Shown: piece after piece, positions 4,507 to 58,723 of the stretch
Position numbering within the stretch: the stretch's first letter is position 1
Layout of the letters: each line of letters begins with the position of its first letter
Source of the DNA: a virus
Strand: one strand, 5' to 3'
DNA length: 64,000 bases
IMG/VR virus record: IMGVR_UViG_3300019886_000067
Coordinates: 16,398-80,397 of that record
Notes under the pieces: generated by a model
Database searches by the model: none
Told to the model about the DNA's origin: nothing
The model's input: only the letters and a program-made list of their open reading frames with translations
Made by a program: the position numbers and the translations under genes

Positions 4507-4941
4507 ATGATTGATCCGTGTATGTACCTCTTCGTAAACCGTGGCCTGTGGATGTCTCCTGGGAAGATTGCGGCGCAGGCTGCTCATGCAGCCGTCGAGG
4601 CGTACCGCATTTCTGACCAGGAAAGCAACATCTTCCGGCTGTGGTATCGAGGCGGTCACTACAAGAAGATTGTCCTGCTCGGGAGAGACGAGAACCATAT
4701 GCGCAACATCGAGGCATATCTTACCGCTCGGGACATTCCTTTGGTAACTATCATTGATGAGGGACATACAGAGATTGCGCCGCTAAGTATCACTGCTATC
4801 GGCTGCGCTGTGCTCGACAAGGCACACGCAAACAACGCGGCGATCTTCTCTACGTTTGAGCTTTACAAGGATGAGCCGCCGCCTAAGAAAGACAATCGCT
4901 CTCCTTGGCAGAAGTTCAAAGACTTTCTAAGCGAAAGCTGA
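4507..4941 (+). CDS. pth2: peptidyl-tRNA hydrolase, Pth2 family
   Basis: MSPGKIAAQAAHAA, W..G..KKIVL, IIDEGHTEIAP.SITAIG. Confidence 0.92.
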   Translation: MIDPCMYLFVNRGLWMSPGKIAAQAAHAAVEAYRISDQESNIFRLWYRGGHYKKIVLLGRDENHMRNIEAYLTARDIPLVTIIDEGHTEIAPLSITAIGCAVLDKAHANNAAIFSTFELYKDEPPPKKDNRSPWQKFKDFLSES

Positions 4942-19623: not shown

Positions 19624-19648
19624 ATGATTTCACCCCCTAGATCACAAC

Positions 19649-19683
19649 GACCGCACGAAACGTATAGTACGTTTCGTGCGGTC
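19649..19683. repeat. perfect 16-bp inverted repeat
   Basis: GACCGCACGAAACGTA-TAG-TACGTTTCGTGCGGTC between TAC and TMP. Confidence 0.8.
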
Positions 19684-19705
19684 TCGATTGCTGTGAATGA
19701 GTACA

Positions 19706-32021: not shown

Positions 32022-32045
32022 CCGAGAAGCGTACCAGAAAACGAC

Positions 32046-35745: not shown

Positions 35746-35766
35746 AAGCGGGGTGATTCCTACAAG

Positions 35767-35842
35767 TACGGCGAACGAGAATCGAACTCGCATTATCCAC
35801 GCTGAGAACGTGGGGTCCTAGTCCTAGTTAGACGACCGCCGC
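35767..35842 (-). tRNA. tRNA-Glu(CTC)
   Basis: CCACG-TTCTCAG-CGTGG; T-loop TTCGATT. Confidence 0.9.
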
Positions 35843-35845
35843 GTA

Positions 35846-35917
35846 TAGCAGACCGAGGATTCGCGCCTCGCTCCCAGGCTTATGAGGCCCGGATGGTCAC
35901 TAGACCACCTGTCTGCA
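35846..35917 (-). tRNA. tRNA-Met(CAT), initiator-like, atypical
   Basis: Loop CTCATAA, unpaired 1:72, T-loop CGCGAAT. Confidence 0.7.
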
Positions 35918-35918
35918 A

Positions 35919-35990
35919 AGTCCCTGTCGGGATTCGAACCCGAACCATTCGCTTAGGAGGCAAACGCGCTATCCATTACGCCACAAGGAC
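35919..35990 (-). tRNA. tRNA-Arg(CCT)
   Basis: Loop CTCCTAA. Confidence 0.9.
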
Positions 35991-35993
35991 ATA

Positions 35994-36062
35994 TCTCCCT
36001 ACTGAGAATCGAACTCAGCCTAACAGATTAGAAGTCCGCCGTCCCGATCCACGGGCAAGGAG
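35994..36062 (-). tRNA. tRNA-Arg(TCT), short D-arm
   Basis: Loop CTTCTAA; 69 nt. Confidence 0.8.
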
Positions 36063-36066
36063 TAAG

Positions 36067-36135
36067 TCCCAAGAGCAGGATTCGAACCTGCACCGCGCGG
36101 CTTATGAGTCCGCCGTGTCACCTAGACATCCTGGG
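36067..36135 (-). tRNA. tRNA-Met/Ile2(CAT), short D-arm
   Basis: Loop CTCATAA; 69 nt. Confidence 0.75.
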
Positions 36136-36140
36136 TAGAG

Positions 36141-36209
36141 CGGGGAAGCAACGAATCGAACGCTGGCCTGCGGGTTTGGAATCCGCTTGGTCTCCATGAC
36201 CTCTTCCCC
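36141..36209 (-). tRNA. tRNA-Trp(CCA), short D-arm
   Basis: Loop TTCCAAA; G73. Confidence 0.8.
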
Positions 36210-36257
36210 TGGTTTCGTGTGCCCACCCACTATCGGGGGTAACACGACACACGAAAG

Positions 36258-36332
36258 GGTGTCTGACGGGATTCGAACCCGCATCGAACCGGATCACAAC
36301 CGGCGGACTTAACCACTTAGACCACAGACACC
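36258..36332 (-). tRNA. tRNA-His(GTG)
   Basis: Loop TTGTGAT; encoded G-1:C73. Confidence 0.9.
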
Positions 36333-36337
36333 GTGTA

Positions 36338-36406
36338 TCCCCTTACTGAGAGTCGAACTCAGCACTCAGGCTTCGGAGGCCCGAGACACGATCCGCGTGT
36401 AAGGAG
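36338..36406 (-). tRNA. tRNA-Arg(CCG), short D-arm
   Basis: Loop CTCCGAA; 69 nt. Confidence 0.8.
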
Positions 36407-36467
36407 TTGTCACTAGTGGGCTCGCGGGAAGCCCTTTATGAGGGACCTATCTCCCTCGCTAGTGTAG

Positions 36468-36542
36468 CGCTGATGATGGGACTCGAACCCACGACATTCC
36501 GCTCGACAGGCGGACGCTCTGACCAAACTGAGCTACATCAGC
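36468..36542 (-). tRNA. tRNA-Asp(GTC)
   Basis: Loop CTGTCGA; G73. Confidence 0.9.
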
Positions 36543-36548
36543 GTAAAG

Positions 36549-36622
36549 CCTCCCCGACAGGATTCGAACCTGTAACCTCTGGTTTCGTAGACCAGCGCGC
36601 TATCCAATTACGCTACGGAGAG
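36549..36622 (-). tRNA. tRNA-Arg(ACG)
   Basis: Loop CTACGAA. Confidence 0.9.
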
Positions 36623-36625
36623 TTA

Positions 36626-36709
36626 TGCGAGTGGTGGGAGTCGAACCCACATGGCCCTTCGGCCGGCGCGGTTTGAACGCACTGCGTATCCCAATTCCAC
36701 CACACTCGC
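36626..36709 (-). tRNA. tRNA-Leu(CAA)
   Basis: Loop TTCAAAC; long variable arm. Confidence 0.9.
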
Positions 36710-36712
36710 GTA

Positions 36713-36795
36713 TACGTTCGGAGGGAGTCGAACCCTCAATCCCGATGGGCACTGGCTTCTAAGACCAGCGTGTATACCAATTCCACCACGAACGC
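36713..36795 (-). tRNA. tRNA-Leu(TAG)
   Basis: Loop CTTAGAA; long variable arm. Confidence 0.9.
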
Positions 36796-36798
36796 TCA

Positions 36799-36881
36799 TG
36801 CGATTGACAAGAGTCGAACTTGCACATTCCGAAGAACACTGCCTCCTCAAGGCAGGGCGTCTACCATTCCGCCACAATCGC
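36799..36881 (-). tRNA. tRNA-Leu(GAG)
   Basis: Loop TTGAGGA; long variable arm. Confidence 0.9.
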
Positions 36882-36887
36882 TTAAAG

Positions 36888-36961
36888 TCAGGATGGCTGG
36901 ATTTGAACCAGCGGCTTCCTCCGTCCGAGGGAGGCACGCTACCAGGCTGCGTCACATCCTG
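36888..36961 (-). tRNA. tRNA-Pro(CGG)
   Basis: Loop CTCGGAC; C1-G72. Confidence 0.9.
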
Positions 36962-36966
36962 TTGAG

Positions 36967-37041
36967 TCGGGATAGAAGGATTTGAACCTTCGGCTTCACC
37001 GCCCCAAACGGCGCGCTCTGACCAGACTGAGCTATATCCCG
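36967..37041 (-). tRNA. tRNA-Pro(TGG)
   Basis: Loop TTTGGGG; C1-G72. Confidence 0.9.
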
Positions 37042-37047
37042 AAAAAG

Positions 37048-37120
37048 CTCTTGCGCTAGGATTCGAACCTAGACCTAACGGGTTAACAGCCCGTCGTGCT
37101 GCCGTTGACACCACGCAAGA
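37048..37120 (-). tRNA. tRNA-Asn(GTT)
   Basis: Loop CTGTTAA; U1-A72. Confidence 0.9.
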
Positions 37121-37126
37121 TCGAAG

Positions 37127-37198
37127 CTGGGGAGGTAGGATTCGAACCTACATCGGGCCGGGTCAGAGCCGTCCATCTTGCCATTAGACCACTCCCCA
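37127..37198 (-). tRNA. tRNA-Gln(CTG)
   Basis: Loop CTCTGAC; U1-A72. Confidence 0.88.
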
Positions 37199-37203
37199 GG
37201 GTA

Positions 37204-37275
37204 ATGCGGAGGCTGGATTCGAACCAGCATCGAATGGGTTCAAGGCCCACCATCATGCCGTTAGACCACTCCGCA
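37204..37275 (-). tRNA. tRNA-Gln(TTG)
   Basis: Loop CCTTGAA (C33); U1-A72. Confidence 0.85.
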
Positions 37276-37507
37276 GCAGAAAGAACAACATAGCACATCT
37301 TCGTGCCAAAGGTCGGGTCGTCCGGTCCCAATTCGGGATGGAACCGGACGACCGTCGCAAGAGTGCGCTCTCTGGGCTAGCTCTCCAACCCTACGCGCAC
37401 CAGGAACGCAACTAATGGGCTGTACGTGCTCTAGGCGTCTCTGCCGAAGACTGTAGCAGATTCTTTGCGGTGTTGCACGTCAAGCGAATCTGTGGTACGG
37501 TTCCCCC

Positions 37508-38950
37508 ATGAAGACAACTCCCGATCAGTTCATGGCGAGCCTTGGCTTGCCAGAGGTATATCGCGTTGGAGGTTCAGTCCGAGACGAAGTTCTCGGCCGG
37601 CGCTCCAAAGACTCCGACTATATGGTTCGGGGCTCCACGCTTAATGAGATTAGGTCGGCTGTCGGGCGCGCGGGTGCTAAGCCGAGCAAGCTCAAGCTAC
37701 GCACAGGTGTTGAGGTAGGTGTACGGGCCGCAGTCAAGGGGCTCGGCTTGCTTGAGATTGTTCTGCCGCGCACAGAGCGCTCAACTGGACCCGGCCGGCA
37801 CGATTTCGAGATTCATTGTTCGCCTGATATCCGACTTGAGGAAGATGCTCTTCGTCGTGACTTCAAAATGAATGCGATCTACCTCAACATCGCTTCTCAG
37901 CACTATGTTGATCCGCTTGGTGGGCTTGATGATATAAAACGTAAACTCATCAACACCACACATGCTGATTCCTTCAAGGAAGACCCGCTTCGCACGCTTC
38001 GAGCGCTGCGTTTCTGTTCTACGTTGCCAGGATTTTGTCTGTCAGGAACTACACACAACCAAATGTGCGACCATGCGCCGGCCGTAACTGGTCTGACGAC
38101 GAAAGGTGTCTCTGCTACCGCATTTGATGAGCTTTGCAAGCTGCTCATGGGCAGTCGGCCAAGCTTGGCGCTGGAATTGATGGCCGAAACAGGCGTTATG
38201 GCGGTTTTCCTGCCTGAGCTTGTGCCAATGCTTGACTTCGAGCAGCGTTCGCGCTACCACGAGAAGACAACAAGCAAGCACACGTTCGATGCTGTGCAGG
38301 CGGCGGCTAATATGCACCAACACGCGCCGCTTCGCGTACGTTTGGCACTACTTTTCCACGATTCCGGCAAGCCTTTGATGGCTTGGACAGGCGAGGACGG
38401 CCTTCAGCATTACTACGCGCTTGATCCAAAGCGAGCAGTAGAGCTAAATGCACCAATCGCCGCACTTGAATCACACGAGGCATGGGGCGTCAAGCAAGCG
38501 CACGCTGCTCTAACGCGCCTTGGCGCTCCAAAGAAGCTACGCCAAGACGTTGAAACACTGATTGCGCGCCATATGTTGCCGCTGCATGAGAACTTTAGGC
38601 CGATCAAGGTACGCAAGTTGCGTGCAGAGCTTGGCGACGAGCTTTTGCGTGACCTAATCACGCATCGGCTGGCTGATGTGCTCGGCAAGGGCGGTGACAC
38701 AACGGCCGCTGTAGAAGTTCTGACGTGGATTGCCAACGAGCAAGACAGGGCCATCGCCGGCCATGTGCCGCTAAGTCCGAAGGAACTTGATATAAGTGGC
38801 CGTGAACTTGTTGCGCTAGGTTTGAACGGCCGCGAAATCGGACGCGTGCAGAAGCAGCTACTACACGAGGTACTTGCTCAGCCTAAGCTCAACACAAACG
38901 AGTGGCTTGTCAATCGAGCCAAGGTCATACGCCACAAGGATATGAAATGA
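37508..38950 (+). CDS. cca: CCA-adding tRNA nucleotidyltransferase with HD domain
   Basis: YRVGGSVRD..LG..SKDSD, EDALRRDFKMNA, FKEDPLRTLRALRF, LALLFHDSGKP. Confidence 0.93.
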   Translation: MKTTPDQFMASLGLPEVYRVGGSVRDEVLGRRSKDSDYMVRGSTLNEIRSAVGRAGAKPSKLKLRTGVEVGVRAAVKGLGLLEIVLPRTERSTGPGRHDFEIHCSPDIRLEEDALRRDFKMNAIYLNIASQHYVDPLGGLDDIKRKLINTTHADSFKEDPLRTLRALRFCSTLPGFCLSGTTHNQMCDHAPAVTGLTTKGVSATAFDELCKLLMGSRPSLALELMAETGVMAVFLPELVPMLDFEQRSRYHEKTTSKHTFDAVQAAANMHQHAPLRVRLALLFHDSGKPLMAWTGEDGLQHYYALDPKRAVELNAPIAALESHEAWGVKQAHAALTRLGAPKKLRQDVETLIARHMLPLHENFRPIKVRKLRAELGDELLRDLITHRLADVLGKGGDTTAAVEVLTWIANEQDRAIAGHVPLSPKELDISGRELVALGLNGREIGRVQKQLLHEVLAQPKLNTNEWLVNRAKVIRHKDMK

Positions 38951-39150
38951 GCGCTCCGATTTATCCTCCGTGGACGAAGAAGTACAAGCTAAGCTACCTT
39001 GGCTTCAATAACTACGAGGTAATAGAGGAGTCATCAAAAGACATACTCGCGGTCGGTCCTTTGGAGTATGGCGAGGCACAAGACATTGCTGATCGCGCCA
39101 ATTCCGAACTCACAGCCGAACGTGTCAAGAACAGAAACAAGGCCAAATGA
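38947..39150 (+). CDS. hypothetical protein
   Basis: ATGA overlap with cca. Confidence 0.55.
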   Translation: MSAPIYPPWTKKYKLSYLGFNNYEVIEESSKDILAVGPLEYGEAQDIADRANSELTAERVKNRNKAK

Positions 39151-39322
39151 TAAATCTGGCCTTTGTCTGCGCCGGCCTGCTGGGTGTTTTGATGTTCATG
39201 TGTCTCGCGCACGAACGCGAGCTTGAGCGTGAAGAGTGCCCACATCTTAATTGCCGCGAATTTGGAAGCTCCTACAATATCACTATCTGTTTTTGCCCAG
39301 ATTGCGGAAAGGTAGACCTACT

Positions 39323-39766
39323 ATGATCCTGCGTAACCAAGCCATATGTACGCTGTGTGGCGACCACATCAAGTCGATACACAAACATGATTTCAAATCT
39401 TGTTTATGTGGAGCGCTATCAGTTGACGGCGGCACTGAGTATCTGCGCCGGCTCGGCAACCCAGGAGAGTACAGAGACACGTCTATTTGTATTCCCGAGC
39501 AGCTTCCGATCAAGGAGGCCGCAAAGTATCTCGGCGTCGTAGTGGCGCTGGGAGATACGGCCGTTGCAGGAACTTCGTGGCTAGAAGGCCAGTTGATAGG
39601 TCAGTTCAAGACTAAGCCTTGGTTCAAGCCGCCGAAGGACAAACGACAACTACTCAAGTGGTGTCGGAAGCTCGTGGAATGGGAGTTGGTTGATGAGCTT
39701 ACGACTAAGGGCGACGCTCAGTGCTATTGGAAATCCAAAGTCGAGCTAGCTACTTGGACTGATTAA
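39323..39766 (+). CDS. Cys-rich zinc-ribbon phage protein
   Basis: NQAICTLCGDHIKS.HKHDFKSCLCGALSVDGG. Confidence 0.7.
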   Translation: MILRNQAICTLCGDHIKSIHKHDFKSCLCGALSVDGGTEYLRRLGNPGEYRDTSICIPEQLPIKEAAKYLGVVVALGDTAVAGTSWLEGQLIGQFKTKPWFKPPKDKRQLLKWCRKLVEWELVDELTTKGDAQCYWKSKVELATWTD

Positions 39767-39767
39767 T

Positions 39768-39834
39768 TATGCACGATCACGCAGATTAGATGATGTTCTC
39801 TTCGCCTAGAAGTAAATCTGCGTGATCGTGCATA
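39768..39834. repeat. perfect 20-bp inverted repeat with 27-nt loop
   Basis: TATGCACGATCACGCAGATT...AATCTGCGTGATCGTGCATA between convergent genes. Confidence 0.85.
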
Positions 39835-39838
39835 CGAC

Positions 39839-40159
39839 TTAGTTAGTCTTGGTGACTACTCCGCCTGCCTGGGATTCCTGGGCAGCCAGCGGCAAAGGAG
39901 TGGCCTGCGCTGCTGCTGGTGCAGCCGGCGGAAAAGTAAGTTTCGCAAGCTCATTCTCAGACGTGTCGATACGGCTCTTGACCGTATCTAGGTAGCTCTC
40001 AAGCTGAGCGCTCTGAGAAGCAAGCGCGGAAAGCTGAGAAGTCGCACGAACGAACTCTGCCTTATGTGACTCAAGAAGTTGCTCGGCTGCTGCAATCTTG
40101 TGAGCTACAGTGCCCGGCACAAGCTTCTCGACAAAGTTCAATGCGTCAGAGATATTCAT
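39839..40159 (-). CDS. hypothetical coiled-coil protein
   Basis: Downstream of tRNA array 2. Confidence 0.6.
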   Translation of the reverse strand: MNISDALNFVEKLVPGTVAHKIAAAEQLLESHKAEFVRATSQLSALASQSAQLESYLDTVKSRIDTSENELAKLTFPPAAPAAAQATPLPLAAQESQAGGVVTKTN

Positions 40160-40213
40160 TGGTACAGTGCATCCTTCCCGTGGTTTTGTAGTAGGAGAAG
40201 GATACCATTAGAG

Positions 40214-40299
40214 CGGAAGGAGTGGGACTCGAACCCACACGCCGGCTCACGCCGACCTCAGCACTTTCCAGGCGCAGTACCGCTCCTTTGGGTCCTTCC
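40214..40299 (-). tRNA. tRNA-Ser(GGA), atypical D-arm
   Basis: Loop CTGGAAA; long variable arm; G73. Confidence 0.8.
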
Positions 40300-40307
40300 G
40301 AAAGAGA

Positions 40308-40378
40308 AGAGCACGGTTGGATTCGAACCAACGTGAGACGGGTTGCAACCGCCGGCTTCGCCCCTCAGCCACGCACTC
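40308..40378 (-). tRNA. tRNA-Cys(GCA)
   Basis: Loop TTGCAAC; U73. Confidence 0.88.
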
Positions 40379-40453
40379 ATAAGCGGGATGCACTTTGGCG
40401 CGCTCCCGAGTGCGCCTCGCTCTAGACGGCCGCAACCGACGAGCGATACTAAG

Positions 40454-40542
40454 CGGTAGGTCAGGGATTCGAACCCTGGGAACACCATTAGATGTTCGCT
40501 GGTTTAGCAAACCAGTCCATTCGGCCGCTCTGGCAACCTACC
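40454..40542 (-). tRNA. tRNA-Ser(GCT)
   Basis: Loop TTGCTAA; long variable arm. Confidence 0.9.
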
Positions 40543-40548
40543 GGAAAG

Positions 40549-40631
40549 CGGAGGGTAAGCGAATCGAACACTCACGCGGTTAGTCGTGCCCTGGGTTTCG
40601 AATCCAGTTTGCCGCCTTGGCGGTACCCTCC
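40549..40631 (-). tRNA. tRNA-Ser(CGA), atypical D-arm
   Basis: Loop TTCGAAA; long variable arm. Confidence 0.8.
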
Positions 40632-40635
40632 GAAA

Positions 40636-40715
40636 TGGAAACGTGAGGAATCGAACCTCATAGTACGAGACAGCGGGGTTACAGCCCACTTGGCGGTCCC
40701 AGCGCCAACGTTTCC
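40636..40715 (-). tRNA. tRNA-Tyr(GTA)
   Basis: Loop CTGTAAC; A73. Confidence 0.85.
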
Positions 40716-40777
40716 GAACGAAGAAGGACTATAGCATACGCTCGACACATTCGCGCCAGATGTGGTACAGTTCTTCC

Positions 40778-40987
40778 ATGAGCAACGTACAGGCCCTAGT
40801 AGGCAAGCCACTCACATTCTACGCCCGAGGCAAGAAGCGCAACATAGGCACGATCACGGATGTATCTGTCGTAGACAACGGCGTCCGATTCGCCGCAACC
40901 GTGACTGACAGCGAGGTAGCCAAGCTTCTAGGCGTTGATCCTCCTGTTGAGATAAGCGGTGGTGCTGGCGATGTCTCAAGCACCTAA
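40778..40987 (+). CDS. hypothetical protein
   Basis: TGGTACAGT-N6-ATG leaderless start. Confidence 0.55.
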   Translation: MSNVQALVGKPLTFYARGKKRNIGTITDVSVVDNGVRFAATVTDSEVAKLLGVDPPVEISGGAGDVSST

Positions 40988-41582
40988 ACTTGATCCTGCA
41001 AGTACGTGGCTTGTATCTGACACGCACTTTGGGCACGAAAACATCGTCGGCTTCGCCCGCCGCCCGCACGACCATGAGCAAGTCATTATGGAGGAATGGG
41101 CACAAACTGTTCCCGACGACGGAACGGTACTGCATCTAGGCGACTTGTCTTATAGAAATAACTCGTTCTTCAAGAACATGATCGCCAAGCACTTGACTGG
41201 CGCTCAGAAGCTCTTGATCCAAGGCAACCATGATCGTCAGCGGCCGAACTTCTATCGTGATAGCGGCTTCAAGATCGTTAAGCCTTTTGAGATTCGCTAT
41301 GTCACGCCGAAGGCTGGTGTCTGGACAGTCTCGTTCTCTCACTATCCCCTAAAGAAGTCAGCACATCCGCTTGCATCAGCAGGCGGCCTAAGACGCGTTC
41401 ATATACACGGCCACATTCACAATAACGGGTATGGCGGCAAGAATTCTCCGTTTGTTCCGTTCAGCGCAGGGCAAATCAACATCAGCGTTGAGCAGATGCA
41501 CTATCGCCCCTGCAAACTAGACGACCTTCTCAACGGCTACATAGAAGGTTGCTACGAGCCTCCGAAGGTCGAGGACAAGTGA
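40971..41582 (+). CDS. calcineurin-like metallophosphoesterase
   Basis: SDTHFGH, HLGD, GNHD, SHYP, HGHIH. Confidence 0.9.
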   Translation: MSQAPKLDPASTWLVSDTHFGHENIVGFARRPHDHEQVIMEEWAQTVPDDGTVLHLGDLSYRNNSFFKNMIAKHLTGAQKLLIQGNHDRQRPNFYRDSGFKIVKPFEIRYVTPKAGVWTVSFSHYPLKKSAHPLASAGGLRRVHIHGHIHNNGYGGKNSPFVPFSAGQINISVEQMHYRPCKLDDLLNGYIEGCYEPPKVEDK

Positions 41583-41929
41583 ACCTGCCGCCGCTCTATC
41601 ATTGGTCGCCCAGCGAGCGCCGCGTCGAAATACTGCAAGATGGGCTCAAGGTGTTCTCTGAGCCAGTCGTTCATGGAGCCGGCCGCGCTCCGTATCTGTG
41701 CTTTGGAACGTGCCCGCGCCAAGCATGGAGTCTATCTGGCGATTTGGATTGGGTGTCAGAAAAAGAGGAATGGGACCTCTGGCAAATCATCCTCTCAAAA
41801 GACGATGATGTGCATATCAGGATGGAGAGTGGCACATATATTTACGAGGTACGAACGTTCAACTCAATTCCGGCTGATCGTGTGTGGCTTGTTGCGCAAC
41901 GTGAGCCGGCGGTCTTCATCGAGCGGTAG
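41579..41929 (+). CDS. possible ADP-ribosyltransferase/Tpt1-like fold protein
   Basis: LYHWSP....EILQDGL...YLCF resembles the NAD-binding LYHGT...I...GL motif. Confidence 0.4.
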   Translation: MNLPPLYHWSPSERRVEILQDGLKVFSEPVVHGAGRAPYLCFGTCPRQAWSLSGDLDWVSEKEEWDLWQIILSKDDDVHIRMESGTYIYEVRTFNSIPADRVWLVAQREPAVFIER

Positions 41930-42007
41930 AATGGACAGAATACTTGCGTTTGCGCTACCTTTTTGCCCATACTGCAACTACATCCCGAGCTTCAAGTAAC
42001 CGCTGCT

Positions 42008-42337
42008 ATGCCCCGCGAAAAAGTTCTGACTGTTCGTATTTCTGATTGTGAGATTCAGACGTTCAAAGCCACCGGCAAAGGTGGGCAGAACCGAGACAAA
42101 CGCGATACGGCCGTTCGTATAATCCACCATCAGTCCGGGGCGCGTGGTGAATCACGTGAAGAGCGTGACCAGCTTTCCAACAAGCGCAAAGCCTTTGTCC
42201 GCATGGCGAACTCAAAGGCATTCAAGGACTGGCTTACAAGAGAGCATAGCCGTCGTATAGCCGACGTAGATGCCTGGCTTGATGAGCAGATGAAGCCAGA
42301 GAACCTTGATGTTGAGTATGGCTCGGATACCAACTAG
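42008..42337 (+). CDS. GGQ-domain peptidyl-tRNA hydrolase (release factor-like, no codon-recognition domain)
   Basis: TFKATGKGGQNRDKRDTAVRIIH..SG...REERDQLSNKRKA; 109 aa. Confidence 0.9.
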   Translation: MPREKVLTVRISDCEIQTFKATGKGGQNRDKRDTAVRIIHHQSGARGESREERDQLSNKRKAFVRMANSKAFKDWLTREHSRRIADVDAWLDEQMKPENLDVEYGSDTN

Positions 42338-42578
42338 CTCAAACAACATGCGTGTGTTTAGCGAAGCGCACAAACACAATAACCACTGGCTAGTTGAAGC
42401 TGAATGGCACGGCAAAATGCGGATTGTCCACAGTGGCCTTGACATCTACGCTGTACTTCGCTGGGCGACCCAGCATGGCTACCACGAGAAAAGCCCTGCC
42501 TAAAAGAGCAATTCTGCAACATAGTTGCAACAAAGCTAAATTAGACAGGACCGCAATGGACACCCGTCTTTCCAACGA

Positions 42579-42651
42579 TGCAACCTGTAGGAATCGAACC
42601 TACGACGCCCGGCTTTTCAGGCCGGCGCTCTACCGTCTGAGCTAAGGTTGC
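42579..42651 (-). tRNA. tRNA-Phe(GAA)
   Basis: Loop CTGAAAA. Confidence 0.92.
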
Positions 42652-42656
42652 TTGTA

Positions 42657-42728
42657 AGCGCGTGACGAGATTCGAACTCGTTCTTCTTGGTTGGAAGCCA
42701 AGTGTGCCGCCATGAACACTTCACACGC
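42657..42728 (-). tRNA. tRNA-Gly(TCC)
   Basis: Loop CTTCCAA; U73. Confidence 0.9.
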
Positions 42729-42803
42729 GAAAGGCCGGGCTCTCACCGGACTACAAGCGACCACGCTTGCCTTATGGGTCGGTACTTCCCGACAGTAACT
42801 TAA

Positions 42804-42875
42804 AGCTCTCACCGAGAATCGAACTCGATACTGACGATTACGAAACGTCCGTGTCACCAACAACACCTTGAGAGC
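42804..42875 (-). tRNA. tRNA-Thr(CGT)
   Basis: Loop TTCGTAA. Confidence 0.88.
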
Positions 42876-42878
42876 ACA

Positions 42879-42945
42879 AGCCCCATATCGGAATCGAACC
42901 GATTCTAGCTGATTACAAAACAGCCGCCAGACCATCAGATAGGGC
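42879..42945 (-). tRNA. tRNA-Thr(TGT), degenerate D-arm (67 nt)
   Basis: Loop TTTGTAA. Confidence 0.7.
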
Positions 42946-43034
42946 GTATCCACAGGCTGCCTACTTCTCCTGCTAAGAGGGTCGGCATTTAAAAGGATGT
43001 CCAAAGCAATAAGGACAAGCATTCACCTGTTAGA

Positions 43035-43106
43035 AGCTGATGACGAGAGTCGAACTCGTAACCCCTCCCATACCAAGGGAGTGCTATACCGTTAAGCCAC
43101 ACCAGC
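43035..43106 (-). tRNA. tRNA-Thr(GGT)
   Basis: Loop TTGGTAT. Confidence 0.9.
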
Positions 43107-43187
43107 GGGCGTGGCGCTCTAACCAGATTTGAGCTACACCCGAGCAAAGCTCGCGCGGTGGGCTTCGATCCCACAACCTCCACTAAG
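43107..43187 (-). ncRNA. circularly permuted tRNA-like RNA (T-arm, closed acceptor, D-arm)
   Basis: GTGG-AGGTT-GTGGG ATCGAAG CCCAC-CGCGCGAGC TTT GCTCGGGTG-TA-GCTC AAATCTGGTTA GAGC-G-CCAC. Confidence 0.8.
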
Positions 43188-43260
43188 TACCCCCGCAAGG
43201 AATCGAACCTTGTTCGCTGGCTTAAGAGGCCAGTGCTCATCCTGTTAAAGCTTCGGAGGC
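43188..43260 (-). tRNA. tRNA-Lys(CTT)
   Basis: Loop CTCTTAA. Confidence 0.9.
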
Positions 43261-43266
43261 TTGTAG

Positions 43267-43358
43267 TGCGCCTGATGGGACTCGAACCCACATCCGTTGG
43301 TGTGAAAAACCAATGCTGGGGACAACTCAGTTGCCTCTACCATTTCAGCTACAGACGC
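43267..43358 (-). tRNA. tRNA-Glu(TTC) with a hairpin inserted in the D-loop
   Basis: D-stem GCTG/CAGC encloses GGCAAC-TGA-GTTGTC; anticodon arm TTGGT-TTTTCAC-ACCAA. Confidence 0.7.
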
Positions 43359-43364
43359 TTAAAG

Positions 43365-43438
43365 TGCCCCCTCTGGGATTCGAACCCAGTTCTCACCGCT
43401 TAAAAGGCGGGGTTCTAACACACATGAACTAAGGAGGC
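43365..43438 (-). tRNA. tRNA-Lys(TTT)
   Basis: Loop CTTTTAA. Confidence 0.88.
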
Positions 43439-43443
43439 GTGCA

Positions 43444-43516
43444 AGCAACAGACGGGATTCGAACCCGCAACCTTCGACATGGCAAGCCGACGCACTACCG
43501 AACGTGCTCCTGTTGC
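43444..43516 (-). tRNA. tRNA-Gly(GCC)
   Basis: Loop TTGCCAT; U73. Confidence 0.88.
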
Positions 43517-43521
43517 GTAAG

Positions 43522-43595
43522 TACGCCCCCAAGGATTTGAACCTTGAACCAACACCTTATAAGGATGCTGCTCTAACCAATTGAGCTAGAGGCGC
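43522..43595 (-). tRNA. tRNA-Ile(TAT)
   Basis: Loop CTTATAA; canonical cloverleaf. Confidence 0.88.
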
Positions 43596-43600
43596 GAGAG

Positions 43601-43675
43601 TGGATCGAGAAGGATTTGAACCTTCGACAGTTCGCGTATCAGACGAATGCTCTAACCTGACTGAGCTACCGATCC
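43601..43675 (-). tRNA. tRNA-Ile(GAT)
   Basis: Loop CTGATAC. Confidence 0.9.
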
Positions 43676-43680
43676 ATGAG

Positions 43681-43754
43681 TGGACAATCTCGGACTCGAA
43701 CCGAGGACTTCCGCCTTGTAAAAGCGGCGCTCTAACCAACTGAGCTAATCGTCC
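43681..43754 (-). tRNA. tRNA-Val(TAC)
   Basis: Loop TTTACAA. Confidence 0.9.
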
Positions 43755-43758
43755 ATAA

Positions 43759-43827
43759 ACGGGAAGGCTGGACTCGGACCAGCATCTACCGGCCCCACGC
43801 CGGCCGCTCTAATTGAGCTACCTCCCT
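43759..43827 (-). tRNA. atypical tRNA-like gene (Pro-like loop CGTGGGG), possibly a pseudo-tRNA
   Basis: Cloverleaf with A1:G72 mismatch, G33, short D-loop without GG, T-loop TCCGAGT. Confidence 0.55.
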
Positions 43828-43829
43828 AG

Positions 43830-43902
43830 TGGTCAATGCTGGACTCGAACCAGCGACTTCGGCGATGTCACCGCCGCGCTCTCCCAACTGAGCTAATCGA
43901 CC
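43830..43902 (-). tRNA. tRNA-Val(GAC)
   Basis: Loop GTGACAT. Confidence 0.88.
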
Positions 43903-43908
43903 AAGAAG

Positions 43909-43981
43909 TGGAGAAGATGGGATTCGAACCCACGACATCCTGCTTGCAAAACAGGCGCTCTACCAACTGAGCTACATCCCC
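43909..43981 (-). tRNA. tRNA-Ala(TGC)
   Basis: Loop TTTGCAA; G3:U70. Confidence 0.92.
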
Positions 43982-44108
43982 TTGGAGCGCCAGGCATTAC
44001 CCGTGGCGCGTGGTACGGTCAGAGTAGAGGCTGGGACTGGACCGATAGGGCCAGGAGCGTTCTCAAACCGTGAGTAGAACTCTAGCACATCTACGCGACA
44101 CATGCTGA

Positions 44109-44324
44109 CTAGCGCACGCGAGTGATCCTGTTCTTGAATGGTTCGTATGAATTGAGTATCTTGGACTCTTCAGGATCGGATGTTTCGTAGGCATGGCCGG
44201 GGCTCATTTTAGCCGCCATGACTTTGCCGTTTGGCTCTGCGGCCATCAACAGCGTTTCGCCGCCGGCCAACGGCAGATAGGCCGGCGGTTCATGTTTGAG
44301 GTTGGCGAACAACAGCGCTAGCAT
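44109..44324 (-). CDS. small putative virion protein
   Basis: GHAYETSDP motif shared with the C-terminus of 45204..46220. Confidence 0.6.
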   Translation of the reverse strand: MLALLFANLKHEPPAYLPLAGGETLLMAAEPNGKVMAAKMSPGHAYETSDPEESKILNSYEPFKNRITRVR

Positions 44325-45184
44325 TAGTCGCCTAGTCTAATGGCCTGCAAGCTAAAGAACGCCTGTGCTCCCGCTCCGTTGACGTATTCTACGCGAACCC
44401 AGCGGGTACTTGGGCGATGAATTATCTCGCCGTAGAATTCACATCCAGTAGCTTTCGCAAGTTCGACTGTCTTTACCTTCTTGAAGGTTATGTTGTCACG
44501 GCTGACTTCTAGAAAGATAGTTCCGATAACATCGGCTGTTGCGCTGACACGGAACTCGTATTGCCCGAGGCTTCCGTTTGAGAAGCCCGTCGCTGTGGCA
44601 GTTGTGGTCAAATCAATAGAGGCTGACTGAACTTTGGCGGCAGAGCCGAGTGTAGTAGAGGAAAGATCGGTCCACTGACCCGGAGCAAATGTGCCACCGA
44701 CGATAGTTCCAGAAGCAGCGAACACCACTCCGACAACTGTCTCATAATTGGACGCACCCTGCGCCACCGATACTTCTACTGTGCCAGATGTGTAAGCCGT
44801 GCAGTGAACGCGAATGTGCGTGGAACCTGCCGGAATCGCTGCCTCCCATGCCACAGTGCTGTTCGTGGCTGCGGAAAGCGGAGTCGTGGTCGGAGAACCA
44901 GAAGCTACGTTAGCGCCTTGAAATCCCATCCATGTTGTGCCGCCGTCATGGCTTGCTTCGCAAATAGCCGTAACACCAGCGTATACACCTTTGAAGTAGA
45001 AGACACACATAGTTTGTCCTGCTTCTACAGGCGCTATGACTTCTGCGCCGGCACCTGCTGTGCCGGTCAGCGTGCCGTTTACTACGCTATCAGCCTGCTT
45101 AGATGTCTGCTGTATAAGCTGATTCGAGGCGTTTTCGTTGAAGAGAACGAGTTGCCCCGAGGGCAGTAGGACTGTTGCAGACAT
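44324..45184 (-). CDS. beta-rich putative virion decoration protein
   Basis: EASHDGGTTW, EVSRDNITF, RWVRVEYVNG jelly-roll-like motifs; similar to the C-terminal half of 27609..28337. Confidence 0.6.
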   Translation of the reverse strand: MSATVLLPSGQLVLFNENASNQLIQQTSKQADSVVNGTLTGTAGAGAEVIAPVEAGQTMCVFYFKGVYAGVTAICEASHDGGTTWMGFQGANVASGSPTTTPLSAATNSTVAWEAAIPAGSTHIRVHCTAYTSGTVEVSVAQGASNYETVVGVVFAASGTIVGGTFAPGQWTDLSSTTLGSAAKVQSASIDLTTTATATGFSNGSLGQYEFRVSATADVIGTIFLEVSRDNITFKKVKTVELAKATGCEFYGEIIHRPSTRWVRVEYVNGAGAQAFFSLQAIRLGD

Positions 45185-45203
45185 TGTAACCTACTATACC
45201 TGG

Positions 45204-46220
45204 CTATTCGACTTTCACAACAACCCCAGGAAAGTCGTTTTCCAGTACCTTGATTGTCTGTGGGTCTTCCGTTTCATACGGGGTTCCAGAGTTTAGAACT
45301 GCTGTCACTAGTTGACCGTTTGCAGCCTTGACTTTCTCAATCGTCAGTTTCGTGCCGCTTTTGGTCGGTTCAAACAGCGCTGCGGCTACGGTGTAGGAGA
45401 ATGTAGCCGTTGTGGTGCCGCCAGAGTTGTTTTCGGCCGTGACTTTGATGCTGTAGCTTCCAGTCGTTGTAAGCGAGCCCGTGATAAGGCCAGTAATGTT
45501 GTTGATGGTGAGACCAGGAGGCAAGCCACTCGCGCTGTAAAATACAGCGCGAGTGGCAATAATCTGGATTGAAACTTTGCTCCCGGTGGCTTTTTTCTGC
45601 GTCCCTGGGTTCGTAACTTCTGGTGCAGCTTCTTCAGCTTGTTCAGCGGCCATGAAGTTCGTAAATAGCGGGTAGGAGCCTTGGCCGTCAGAGCCAACGA
45701 ATCCGGCAGTGAATGGCGTGTTCGGGTCTTTCGCGTTCAAAACGAGAACCCACGAGCCGGAACCTTCAGGCCGGCGGTAAGCTTCTAGTTTGTTGCCCTG
45801 CTTCCAAAGTGCGAATTCATCACCAGCGGCCGGACTTATAGAGCCAGAAAGGCCAATGCTTGATTCAACGCCGCTTTCAACACGGAATATACCAATTAGG
45901 AGAGTAGATGACGTGTTGTGGTAAAACTGGACTCGATAGCCTGAGTGCGTCGTGTTGTTGTAGCAAAGCCACAAGCATCCGAATCGTTCGGCAATATCCG
46001 AGCCGAGTGACCGCTTGATCGTCACAGCATGGTTGTTTTTGAATTCTTTAGCGTTCCAGTAAGACCCAGAAGACAACCCAAAACCCGAGTATGACATTCC
46101 GCCGGCCGCACTTTTCAGAGCACCCGTAGCCCATGTCATCTTACTCCAATTTGCTTTTTCATACCAAGTAGTTTCGGCATGTTGAAGGTTGTCTTGGAGC
46201 GTAAGTTCTTCTAGGAACAC
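45204..46220 (-). CDS. putative virion protein with He_PIG-type Ig domain
   Basis: YSASGLPPGLTINNITGLITGS...GSYSIKVTA. Confidence 0.75.
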   Translation of the reverse strand: MFLEELTLQDNLQHAETTWYEKANWSKMTWATGALKSAAGGMSYSGFGLSSGSYWNAKEFKNNHAVTIKRSLGSDIAERFGCLWLCYNNTTHSGYRVQFYHNTSSTLLIGIFRVESGVESSIGLSGSISPAAGDEFALWKQGNKLEAYRRPEGSGSWVLVLNAKDPNTPFTAGFVGSDGQGSYPLFTNFMAAEQAEEAAPEVTNPGTQKKATGSKVSIQIIATRAVFYSASGLPPGLTINNITGLITGSLTTTGSYSIKVTAENNSGGTTTATFSYTVAAALFEPTKSGTKLTIEKVKAANGQLVTAVLNSGTPYETEDPQTIKVLENDFPGVVVKVE

Positions 46221-46258
46221 TCACCAATTCTGCCACAGCAACCGGCTTTCAGCCGTGC

Positions 46259-46307
46259 GACAATATCGTCACATACGCCCGATTCGAACGAATGTGACGA
46301 TATTGTC
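46259..46307. repeat. 16-bp inverted repeat directly 3' of the RNase P RNA
   Basis: GACAATATCGTCACAT...ATGTGACGATATTGTC; loop contains CG-TTCGAAT-CG on the - strand. Confidence 0.8.
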
Positions 46308-46311
46308 ACAA

Positions 46312-46667
46312 ATGGGGTCCAGCCTGTAGCCGGGGTTCTGTTCCCAGGACGACAAACCCCTGGGCGACCACGATCTTTCTTACCGGGCTGACTAATTCCC
46401 GGCAGCCGTCCTATGACGTGCCGCTCCAAACCTTGATCGCCCCCGCTATGCTTCGGGCGTCTGTTCTTGGATCGCACCCAGCCTTGGCAACTCGCGCGTG
46501 CGCGCGTCTCGCGGTTCAAGCGTCCCGTGCTACTGTCCGCATCGCTCTCGCAACTTGGCCCCAACAAGGACTCCCGCCGGCCGGTGACGACGAGGTTAGC
46601 CCTCGTCGGGGTGCCCCGAACTTCCTCTCGCGTCCTTCAACCGCGAGCCGCAGTCCGGCTGGCCCAC
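46312..46667 (-). ncRNA. rnpB: RNase P RNA
   Basis: GAGGAAGTTCGGGGCACC (46627-46610) and AACAGAACCCCGGCTAC (46342-46326) form P4; P1, P2, P3, P5 and P19 can all be paired; about 355 nt. Confidence 0.88.
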
Positions 46668-46670
46668 TAA

Positions 46671-46732
46671 AACGAAGAGAGGGATTCGAGCCCTCTACTG
46701 CCAACATCGCAGCCACCATACCTTGCTCCGCT
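46671..46732 (-). ncRNA. D-armless tRNA-like element
   Basis: AGCGGAG/CTTCGTT acceptor, GCTGC-GATGTTG-GCAGT arm, AGAGGG-CTCGAAT-CCCTCT T-arm. Confidence 0.55.
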
Positions 46733-46790
46733 CCGAAGGTTTCTGTACTTGGAGTCGTTAGACGATAATCCGTGTTGAAACCTACAAACA

Positions 46791-46870
46791 TGGAGAAGGA
46801 GGGATTCGAACCCTCGTCTTACCGCTGCGCCATTAGCGCGTTACACGGCAATCGACACCAAGCCTTCCCC
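46791..46870 (-). ncRNA. mini-tmRNA: tRNA-like domain only, no mRNA-like domain
   Basis: GGGGAAG/CTTCTCC-A with G3:U70, stemless D-loop ending GGTGTCGA, helix TTGCCG/CGGTAA, GAC linker, T-arm GAGGG-TTCGAAT-CCCTC. Confidence 0.8.
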
Positions 46871-46884
46871 GTCTTCAAACCATA

Positions 46885-47058
46885 TCACGTATAGCGCTCC
46901 GGCGTCTTGGTCGGCCCAAGCAGCCATATCAAGAACTTGTAAAGCAGGTAGAGCCCAATCGCAACACCCAGCACTTCGCCTAGCGCCACGGCCGTTCCTT
47001 CGCCGCCGCCGGACGCGAATCCAACAACTATCAGTAGCAATGCGATAAGAAGTATCAT
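46885..47058 (-). CDS. small two-helix membrane protein
   Basis: MILLIALLLIVVGFASGGGEGTAVALGEVLGVAIGLYLLYKFLIWLLG; TTGACA-N17-TAGGGT-N6-ATG. Confidence 0.65.
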   Translation of the reverse strand: MILLIALLLIVVGFASGGGEGTAVALGEVLGVAIGLYLLYKFLIWLLGPTKTPERYT

Positions 47059-47119
47059 GCAAGCACCCTAGCAAACCCAGGGAAGCTTGTCAAGCGCTAC
47101 GGACCAACTTCCTCGCCAC

Positions 47120-58357: not shown

Positions 58358-58723
58358 ATGAAGCTATGGCTCGATGATGTACGTCCGGCACCCCAGGGAT
58401 GGATGTGGGCCAAGGACAACGCGACCGCGAAGAGCATCCTTGAAGCCTGTGGAGTCACGGGACACGTCGCAATCCATGAGTGCTCGCTAGACCACGATCT
58501 AGGCGCTTTGCCAACTGGCGACACTGATCCGCGTGAGGTCATGTTCTTGCAGGGCGATAGCCCAGACGGCAGCGGGTATGACTTGGCCGTGTGGATGTGT
58601 GAAAATGGGCTTGTACCTGACATCGTAACCATCCATTCGTGGAACCCTGCCGGCGCGAGACGTATGCGGGCCACCTTCTACGACCACGGCTACGAGACTA
58701 CACTGAGGCCCTTTCAGCTATGA
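58358..58723 (+). CDS. cyclic-phosphate-processing receiver-domain protein
   Basis: KLWLDDVRPAP, SLDHDLG, GYD..W, IHSWNPAG. Confidence 0.75.
   Translation: MKLWLDDVRPAPQGWMWAKDNATAKSILEACGVTGHVAIHECSLDHDLGALPTGDTDPREVMFLQGDSPDGSGYDLAVWMCENGLVPDIVTIHSWNPAGARRMRATFYDHGYETTLRPFQL

Follow-up and report, generated by a model that had tools for sequence, protein, structure and literature searches.

A conserved tRNA island in soil phages with a predicted RNase P RNA and a tag-less mini-tmRNA

The stretch of viral DNA analysed here carries tRNA genes together with RNAs and proteins that may act on tRNA. The window, 64,000 nucleotides in length, comprises bases 16398–80397 of an 80,397-bp linear contig in IMG/VR (IMGVR_UViG_3300019886_000067; CheckV completeness 66%). 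It derives from a tailed phage, with a large terminase, portal, major capsid protein (MCP) and ribonucleotide reductase encoded within it. Positions 35,767 to 46,870 hold an island in which three arrays of tRNA genes alternate with protein genes, headed by an RNase P RNA and by a transfer-messenger RNA (tmRNA) that consists of the tRNA-like domain only, here called the mini-tmRNA. The gene content, conservation and RNA structures of this module are established, and we consider it fairly likely that it constitutes a lineage-conserved phage module for the production of tRNA. An earlier reading of the same DNA (the original prediction) had described the island as a self-contained system for tRNA maturation and ribosome rescue.

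The core of the island recurs in fixed order in about 12 related soil phage contigs with portal proteins 40–63% identical. Reading from the promoter, the first half consists of a tRNA-like element (in some cases), the mini-tmRNA, the RNase P RNA, tRNA block 1 (Ala to Phe) and a protein-gene position that we call slot A. The second half consists of block 2 (Tyr, Ser, Cys), the gene for a CCA-adding enzyme on the opposite strand, block 3 (Gln to Glu) and the portal gene. Relatives that cover the region have approximately 26–36 tRNAs, with the block order unchanged. The shared core is thus made up of the tRNA blocks, the RNase P RNA, the CCA enzyme, a phosphoesterase and often the mini-tmRNA. To this extent the co-occurrence anticipated by the original prediction is borne out; the GGQ-type hydrolase and Pth2, which it also listed, vary among relatives. 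The description of all RNAs on the − strand, with enzymes on the + strand between the arrays, is confirmed, except that two − strand protein open reading frames (ORFs) also lie inside the island.

Related contigs, denoted below by G and L labels, were recovered by an alignment-based scan of IMG/VR, and nine were analysed at full length. L113/L193, L196, L199, L192 and L224 were added by CCA-based scans of IMG/VR and of metagenomes. Scanning IMG/VR with the CCA protein alone, or with one exact RNase P RNA motif (CR-V), returned zero relatives, so alignments were required to find them. A search with the portal protein yielded hundreds of related proteins. The closest relatives have portal and CCA proteins 79–81% identical, and the comparison set consists of others. 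No cultured relative was found: the MCP is at most 30% identical to that of any deposited phage, and the single megablast match to cultured phages is a tRNA-Pro. Sequencing runs that contain the stretch with RNase P RNA, mini-tmRNA and tRNAs are soil DNA metagenomes only.

ARAGORN predicts 33 canonical tRNAs, all on the − strand, in three blocks (35766–37275, 40308–40715 and 42579–43981). Together they cover all 20 amino acids, as had been claimed. Rfam recovers 28 at its gathering score and further ones below it. Block 1 (42579..43981, −) encodes tRNAs for Ala, Val (two), Ile (two), Gly (two), Lys (two), Thr (three) and Phe, along with tRNA-like fillers. Block 2, extended to 40213..40715 (−), has Tyr, a Ser-CGA-like gene, Ser-GCU, Cys and a type-II tRNA-like gene. 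Block 3 (35766..37275, −) has Gln (two), Asn, Pro (two), Leu (three), Arg (three), Asp, His, Trp, Met (two), Glu and an Arg-CCG-like gene, and is immediately upstream of the portal gene on the shared strand. Spacers between tRNAs are mostly 3–6 nucleotides (nt). None of the 33 tRNAs has CCA encoded after the discriminator. The dinucleotide CT, which had been described as usual at this point, is found in 10 of 33 by script and in an estimated ~60% once mis-registered acceptor stems are corrected by hand.

Relaxed ARAGORN settings and folding of tRNA-sized gaps add at least five non-canonical tRNA-like genes, so the earlier count of 38 tRNA and tRNA-like genes is a fair one. All on the − strand, they include the Arg-CCG-like (36337–36405), Ser-CGA-like (40548–40631; conserved in G001 and G010) and Pro-UGG-like (43759–43828; without U33) genes, identified by relaxed ARAGORN and folding, and a Thr-like gene (42879–42945; Rfam 27.8 bits). 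The type-II tRNA-like gene (40213–40307) has a good acceptor stem, a T-arm and a long variable arm. Its anticodon stem is of 7 bp, with a 10-nt loop containing CU-GGA-A, and it occupies the place of tRNA-Ser(GGA) in relatives. A permuted, YrlA-like element (43107–43186; Rfam YrlA 22.5 bits) is ordered T-arm, closed acceptor-like stem, D-arm, with ends that pair at the anticodon-stem site, as in the YrlA (Y RNA-like) mimics of tRNA known from bacteria; no Ro/TROVE gene was found in the contig. One canonical gene, tRNA-Thr(UGU) at 43266–43358 (−), is unusually long at 93 nt, about 20 nt over a normal Thr tRNA, and scores 57.7 bits in Rfam across its full length. With blastn, the non-canonical fillers have only weak matches in relatives, the Ser-CGA-like gene excepted.

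With the two best non-canonical genes included, the phage tRNAs read 52 of the 61 sense codons under standard wobble. This covers ~85% of codon usage and leaves ~15% unread (strict wobble; 14 confident genes). GAA, UCU/UCC/UCA and UUA go unread even if U34 reads whole four-codon boxes, as do GCY and CCY under strict wobble. One explanation for such a large set is codon supply and host range: the tRNAs would offset the difference between a phage of 54% GC, with GC at third codon positions (GC3) of 0.55 (55%), and a host that is probably GC-rich, and the RNase P RNA and CCA enzyme would add capacity. The protein homologues do come from phages of high-GC actinobacteria, and many anticodons are of the U34 or rare kind (Ile-UAU, Lys-UUU, Gln-UUG, Arg-UCU, Leu-UAG). 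Yet relatives with 61–66% GC keep the island and tRNA sets just as large, and some of the phage tRNAs serve G/C-ending codons, whose tRNAs a GC-rich host would supply. We regard this explanation as rather unlikely.

The RNase P RNA, a reduced type A, is at 46311..46666 (−) and aligns to RF00010 over its full length at 19.1 bits. The match is weak, and the identification made in the original prediction is backed by relatives that score up to 57 bits and by covariation. Recognizable elements are helices P1, P2, P3, P4 and P5, the P15 arm adjoining GGU, J18/2 (AGAAAGAU) and a P19-like hairpin. The conserved regions CR-I and CR-V are intact in the alignment to the RF00010 model (GAGGAAGUUCGGGGC / AACAGAACCCCGGCUA), and the P4 helix that they form has three pairs, a bulged U and five pairs. 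P4 is paired at 5/5 or 6/6 positions in six lineages and at 5/6 in G002, and compensatory changes from G-C to A-U occur in G002 and G008. Length across the lineage ranges from 270 nt (G010) to 356 nt (the window). Full-length RF00010 matches occur in six of ten related records (27–57 bits, best E 8e-19), including both that are at least 99% complete, and nhmmer/hidden Markov model searches with the lineage sequences revealed further copies in G008, L193, L196, L199 and L224. A control set of 50 unrelated phage records with CCA enzymes, of which 16 are at least 90% complete, gave no RF00010 match at E ≤ 1e-3; the matches in this lineage are therefore not artefacts of composition.

Covariation was counted on helices parsed by hand in seven lineages, with the pairing checked by script. 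P2, P3 and P5 are fully paired in all seven and P1 in five; in P1, G002 has one mismatch and the window a bulge. P2 is the clearest case. Its strands are GACUGCG/CGUGGUC in the window, GACGAUG/CAUCGUC in G001, GACGGCC/GGUCGUC in G002, GGUUGUC/GGCAACC in G010, GCUGGCC/GGUCAGC in G003, GACUACG/CGUAGUC in G008 and GGCUGAC/GUCAGUC in L199. They pair at 7/7 positions in every lineage and covary in six of seven columns, compared with an average of 4.8/7 when strands are mixed across lineages. RNAalifold, given a plain MAFFT alignment, recovered P4, P5, a hairpin, P15 and a covarying GnGG/CCnC helix, with double changes in 13 of 32 pairs. The last of these belongs to a conserved GnGGGAG-hairpin-GAACCnC module in the specificity domain, whose helix covaries through U-A, C-G and A-U pairs and which may be a reduced P10/11/12. 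Judged by sequence, the phage RNase P RNA is a real, lineage-conserved RNA, and its cleavage activity is a prediction. Directly 3′ of it, at 46255..46311 (−), is a long, near-perfect hairpin that has a chance match to a microRNA family and may be a processing or termination signal.

The mini-tmRNA (46791..46870, −) is 80 nt long. Its match to RF00023, at 46788–46870 (−), scores 44.6 bits (E 3.5e-16) and upholds the earlier call. The acceptor stem is GGGGAAG/CUUCUCC, with G3:U70 and discriminator A73, and is accompanied by a T-arm and a 7-bp P2 stem closed by a 19-nt loop. There is no anticodon arm and no encoded CCA. The 19 nt stand in place of 310 positions of the RF00023 model and provide no resume codon, tag frame or pseudoknots; with the coding part absent, the mini-tmRNA cannot tag. 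Homologues of 59–80 nt, likewise limited to the tRNA-like domain, are found in G002 (51 bits), G008 (61.5 bits), G010, L196 and L199. Compensatory changes among these RNAs fall at acceptor positions 5–7, in the T stem and in P2, around an invariant GGGG...CUCC-A, and G3:U70 and A73 are conserved in the six lineages.

The mini-tmRNA directly precedes the RNase P RNA in G002, G008 and G010. One further tRNA-like element lies between the two in the window and L196, and in L199 the mini-tmRNA is 1.7 kb upstream of the RNase P RNA. G001 and G003/G005 have a TAnnnT promoter box at its place. The intervening spacer of the window (46667..46787, −) folds into a hairpin and a second tRNA-like element with the T-arm AGAGGG-CUCGAAU-CCCUCU. 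The L196 equivalent (19549–19688, −) is a second Ala-type tRNA-like element with G3:U70, and G002 (1229–1389) and G010 (~1787–1883) have a tRNA-like element before the mini-tmRNA. These paired elements may act as processing punctuation for the 5′ end of the RNase P RNA. Two other interpretations of this region were rejected. The 19-nt loop is too short for a mini reading frame and lacks pseudoknots. A two-piece tmRNA assembled from the two tRNA-like elements near the RNase P RNA fails as well, as the permuted or long ARAGORN calls merely span the RNase P RNA.

Ahead of the RNA operon, at 47065..47093 (−), we read a promoter-like TTGACA-N17-TAGGGT, and in relatives TAnnnT boxes are found directly upstream of the RNase P RNA or the mini-tmRNA. 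Between promoter and mini-tmRNA is an ORF for 57 very hydrophobic residues (46885–47058, −), with its ATG 7 nt after the −10 box and 14 nt between its end and the mini-tmRNA. A leaderless gene for a small membrane peptide may therefore open the RNA operon.

A class II CCA-adding enzyme is encoded at 37508..38950 (+), with matches to PF01743 (PolyA_pol head; 67 bits) and PF12627 (RNA-binding; 36 bits). This enzyme, like the GGQ protein, phosphoesterase, Pth2 and cREC protein of the original prediction, is thus supported by Pfam. The best NCBIfam models are CCA enzymes, at scores below their equivalog cut-offs. From the lack of encoded CCA in the phage tRNAs we infer that the product adds CCA rather than poly(A) or A alone. 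All relatives in which the tRNA region is covered encode the enzyme. In a profile scan of contigs with the CCA-enzyme alignment, all matches were to distant bacterial CCA enzymes of at most 33% identity, with no clue to the host. Metagenome loci L203–L223 have CCA-enzyme homologues of 32–41% identity on contigs without tRNA genes; they resemble chromosomal genes of soil bacteria and might point to the donor or host clade.

The CCA gene is preceded by TGGTACGGT, then 6 nt, then ATG, and is probably translated from a leaderless mRNA. A TGGTACGNT box is found 6 nt before this ATG in the window, G001, G002, G003 and G005. The window has six copies of TGGTACGNT, at 37493–37501, 1361, 34735 and 44011 (+) and at 32036 and 34702 (−), compared with 1.15 expected, and none of 100 shuffles reaches six. 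This suggests an extended −10 box for leaderless mRNAs and expression in the actinobacterial style.

Slot A is most often filled by a calcineurin-type metallophosphoesterase, at 40959..41582 (+) in the window (Pfam Metallophos_2; PDB 1xm7, E 2.5e-10). It follows block 1 in 10 of ~12 lineages, the window and G001, G002, G010, G008, L192, L193, L196, L199 and L224. Except in the window, G001 and G003/G005, the phosphoesterase is alone in the slot.

In the window and G001, slot A also includes a gene for a GGQ protein with an RF-1 domain (41963..42337, +; Pfam RF-1, 52 bits), which probably starts at 42008 and would then encode 109 residues. In G003/G005 the gene is elsewhere in the genome. The GGQ motif is strongly conserved in 37 homologues, with G25 and G26 invariant and Q27 near-invariant. 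An AlphaFold2 (AF2) model (pLDDT 87.7) resembles release-factor domain 3 followed by one long C-terminal helix. The protein shares with ArfB/ICT1 the small GGQ domain, the C-terminal helix and the lack of a codon-reading domain, but its closest structural matches in the PDB are RF1/RF2 (E 5e-6) and not ArfB/ICT1 (E 0.02), and the NCBIfam ArfB model scores 23 bits against a cut-off of 100. ArfB binds the empty mRNA channel by a basic C-terminal tail. The last 37 residues of the phage protein have a net charge of about −5, with the family consensus ending MKPENLxxE, and because this tail is acidic the protein is not an ArfB. It is 47–52% identical to "RF-1 domain" release factors of cluster C mycobacteriophages. 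Pth2 (4507..4941, +; Pfam PTH2, 78.5 bits, cut-off 23) is 31 kb from the island. It occurs in G001, G002, G003 and G005, outside the island in the window, G001 and G002 and in slot A directly after block 1 in G003/G005.

These two proteins bear on the function of the mini-tmRNA, which the original prediction had assigned to ribosome rescue. Rescue without a tag can be envisaged: the RNA would be alanylated, brought by SmpB and EF-Tu to a non-stop ribosome and loaded there with the nascent chain, and the resulting peptidyl-RNA would be hydrolysed by the GGQ protein or Pth2, freeing ribosomes while leaving phage proteins unmarked for degradation. Conservation of the alanine identity elements G3:U70 and A73 in six lineages is consistent with this, as are two genes of peptidyl-tRNA-hydrolase type in the genome and a CCA enzyme able to render the RNA chargeable. 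The distribution of the components argues otherwise. G001 and G003/G005 have the GGQ protein and no detected mini-tmRNA, and G002, G008 and G010 have a mini-tmRNA and no GGQ gene in the available sequence. Moreover, the GGQ protein lacks the basic tail by which ArfB senses an empty mRNA channel, and the literature on the single published RNA of comparable form, that of mycobacteriophage DS6A, favours inhibition of tmRNA (PMC4131195). Without a reading frame, trans-translation is impossible, and since the DS6A parallel is discussed as likely to titrate SmpB, we favour a decoy over a rescue role. The mini-tmRNA is most likely a decoy for SmpB and probably does not itself rescue ribosomes; tag-less rescue seems to us quite unlikely.

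Several genes are specific to the window. An ART-like protein, a DUF7695 protein, the cREC protein and the two − strand ORFs are absent from all relatives examined. The ART-fold protein of 126 residues (41549..41929, +) belongs to no Pfam family and has an AlphaFold2 model with pLDDT 89.5. Its family (281 representatives at E ≤ 0.001) has invariant H18, G32 and D76 and near-invariant E100 and R118. The best structural match is the NAD lobe of Tpt1/KptA (Foldseek E 2e-4; VIA Z 10–11 to Tpt1 residues ~87–186), with ART toxins and DarT at Z 7–8. The Tpt1/ART-like protein of the original prediction is thus supported at the level of fold. It shares the NAD-lobe fold of Tpt1/KptA (root mean square deviation 2–3 Å over 85–95 residues), the invariant His and the near-invariant Glu, but lacks the entire N-terminal RNA-binding lobe and so is not a Tpt1. 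In Tpt1 that lobe bears most of the catalytic Arg-His-Arg-Arg tetrad. Family members (P0121–P0270) are small stand-alone proteins of ~110–130 residues, and tblastn finds matches, annotated as hypothetical, in phages of Microbacterium, Curtobacterium and Mycobacterium.

A zinc-ribbon-like DUF7695 protein (39251..39766, +; Pfam 67.8 bits) has a tblastn match, among the relatives examined, only to the window's own genome. The two inserted ORFs (44324..45184 and 45204..46220, −) encode 286 residues and 338 residues, the latter with an Ig-like He_PIG domain (Pfam E 2.8e-12), and look unrelated to tRNA. They are inside the island, between the RNase P RNA and block 1, a position at which both the window and G001 have inserted protein genes; most relatives have tRNA-Ala there, within ~100 nt of the RNase P RNA. 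The cREC_REC protein (58358..58723, +; Pfam 78.2 bits) is 12 kb from the island among unrelated genes, and the surrounding 50–63 kb region has no informative families. Neither it nor the ART-like protein, both counted as parts of the system in the original prediction, belongs to the conserved module.

This distribution is relevant to the possibility that the island is a counter-defence, which would replace the tRNA pool, repair 3′ ends and clear stalled ribosomes after damage by anticodon nucleases or defence RNases. The set does include tRNAs for all 20 amino acids, the CCA enzyme and phosphoesterase could heal 3′ ends that are trimmed or carry a cyclic phosphate, and the Pth2, GGQ, ART/Tpt1-lobe and cREC families have been placed in phage conflicts over RNA repair and ribosome rescue (Iyer et al. 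2021, PMC7824862). However, in comparison with phage tRNA repair by T4 Pnkp/Rnl or RtcB, the contig, 66% complete, has no RtcB, other RNA-ligase and kinase families not having been searched. With RtcB absent from the contig and the cREC and ART-like proteins not conserved, the case for RNA repair is weakened. Nor would the tRNA set make the phage independent of its host: because decoding is incomplete, loss of host tRNA-Glu(UUC) or tRNA-Ser would still halt the phage. Finally, nothing in the sequence points to a damage response over constitutive supply. A counter-defence role is in our view unlikely.

We favour instead a supply module that operates as follows. The − strand RNA operon would be transcribed as a polycistronic RNA, beginning with the mini-tmRNA and RNase P RNA, continuing through ~38 CCA-less tRNAs and reading on into the portal and structural genes. 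With host RnpA as its probable partner, the phage ribozyme would trim every tRNA, and also the mini-tmRNA, at the 5′ end. Short 3′ trailers would be removed by host nucleases, possibly with the phosphoesterase, and the phage CCA enzyme would finish the 3′ ends. The outcome would be a large, phage-controlled supply of tRNA for late protein synthesis. Pth2 and the GGQ protein, as variable accessories, could recycle peptidyl-tRNA or stalled ribosomes, and the mini-tmRNA would occupy host SmpB, resulting in less tagging of phage proteins. The more specific proposal, a working, slimmed-down viral RNase P ribozyme co-transcribed with a tag-less tmRNA mimic, which controls the 5′ maturation of phage tRNAs and disarms host tagging, we advance tentatively, as somewhat less than an even prospect. 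Catalysis, partner proteins and biological trigger of the module we infer. As for the selective pressure, sequence cannot separate defence nucleases, host shut-off and codon mismatch.

A number of observations weigh against a tRNA-supply module of this kind. No RNA run is listed among those with the RNase P/mini-tmRNA/tRNA stretch. Neither SmpB (PF01668) nor rnpA was found in the 80-kb contig, whose completeness is 66%. A host RnpA partner is assumed because the contig lacks rnpA, and function of the operon would depend on host proteins. The term self-contained is thus too strong, given that RnpA, SmpB, RtcB and Ro are absent from the contig and ~15% of codon usage is unread. The host itself is suggested to be actinobacterial by the origins of homologues and the style of promoter alone. 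Position alone links the phosphoesterase to tRNA work. GGQ and Pth2 vary in position among relatives, and the GGQ homologue of the cluster C phage ScottMcG is among replication genes.

The remaining objections concern the RNase P RNA. The window's RF00010 score, like those of the relatives, falls below the gathering cut-off of 100 bits, and the specificity domain in the window is small, rebuilt and not alignable to RF00010. Low score, rebuilt domain and missing RnpA could together indicate that the RNA is not a working ribozyme but a captured host gene in decay, or a titrator of RnpA or pre-tRNA. Decay is contradicted by compensatory conservation of all catalytic-domain helices at ~42% portal identity. 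CR-I and CR-V are kept, including the bulged U, and even in the specificity domain the GnGGGAG...GAACCnC helix covaries. We consider a non-ribozyme very unlikely.

If the proposed reading is correct, phages seize not only the supply and 3′ completion of tRNA but also its 5′ maturation, and do so with a virus-encoded ribozyme of core cellular RNA metabolism that is tuned to tightly packed precursors without CCA. A conserved viral RNase P RNA with a minimal specificity domain would also be a natural experiment on the minimum RNA needed. Within the loosely defined set of phage translation genes, the fixed linkage of mini-tmRNA and ribozyme and the slots for CCA enzyme and phosphoesterase are testable units. 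Both RNAs escape standard annotation. Default ARAGORN reports no tmRNA in the window, and relaxed settings yield only a permuted one, which is spurious and extends into the RNase P RNA; Rfam at its gathering score misses both.

RNase P RNA is viewed as a cellular housekeeping ribozyme. Compared with the bacterial type-A form (RF00010; Escherichia coli M1 RNA, rnpB), the phage RNA shares P1–P5, P15, J18/2, the bulged U of P4 and a location with tRNA genes, its presumed substrates. It differs in being viral, in its length of 270–356 nt, in lacking an alignable P13/P14-like region and an accompanying rnpA, and in belonging to an operon behind a mini-tmRNA. Literature searches did not find a phage RNase P RNA, and the term "RNase P" is absent from both principal surveys of translation genes in phages (PMC7824862, PMC7162821). 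A viral RNase P RNA is apparently unpublished; the translation kits of large phages are already in the literature.

For the mini-tmRNA the nearest parallel is the "TLD only" (tRNA-like domain only) tmRNA of mycobacteriophage DS6A (tmRNA Website tmID 11587; Hudson, Lau and Williams 2014, PMC4131195), which has been discussed as a likely inhibitor of tmRNA–SmpB through titration of SmpB. Both phage RNAs are essentially an alanine-type tRNA-like domain without a tag frame, a likeness of type. The RNAs described here, of 59–80 nt, are in addition lineage-conserved, and at the start of a tRNA operon they are directly linked to an RNase P RNA gene.

Published gene sets of large phages (Iyer et al. 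2021, PMC7824862; Al-Shayeb et al. 2020, PMC7162821) include CCA enzymes, PTH2, cRec, release factors and tmRNA. The present phage has in common with these, and with cluster C mycobacteriophages such as Bxz1, Catera and ScottMcG, its many tRNAs, a tmRNA and a protein with an "RF-1 domain". Unlike them, it is of ~120 kb, not jumbo, and has an unrelated capsid. Its genes are interleaved with tRNA arrays in fixed order, an RNase P RNA is added and the tmRNA is tag-less. The contribution of this locus is a clean, fixed architecture maintained across a lineage, with mini-tmRNA and RNase P RNA joined in a conserved dicistron.

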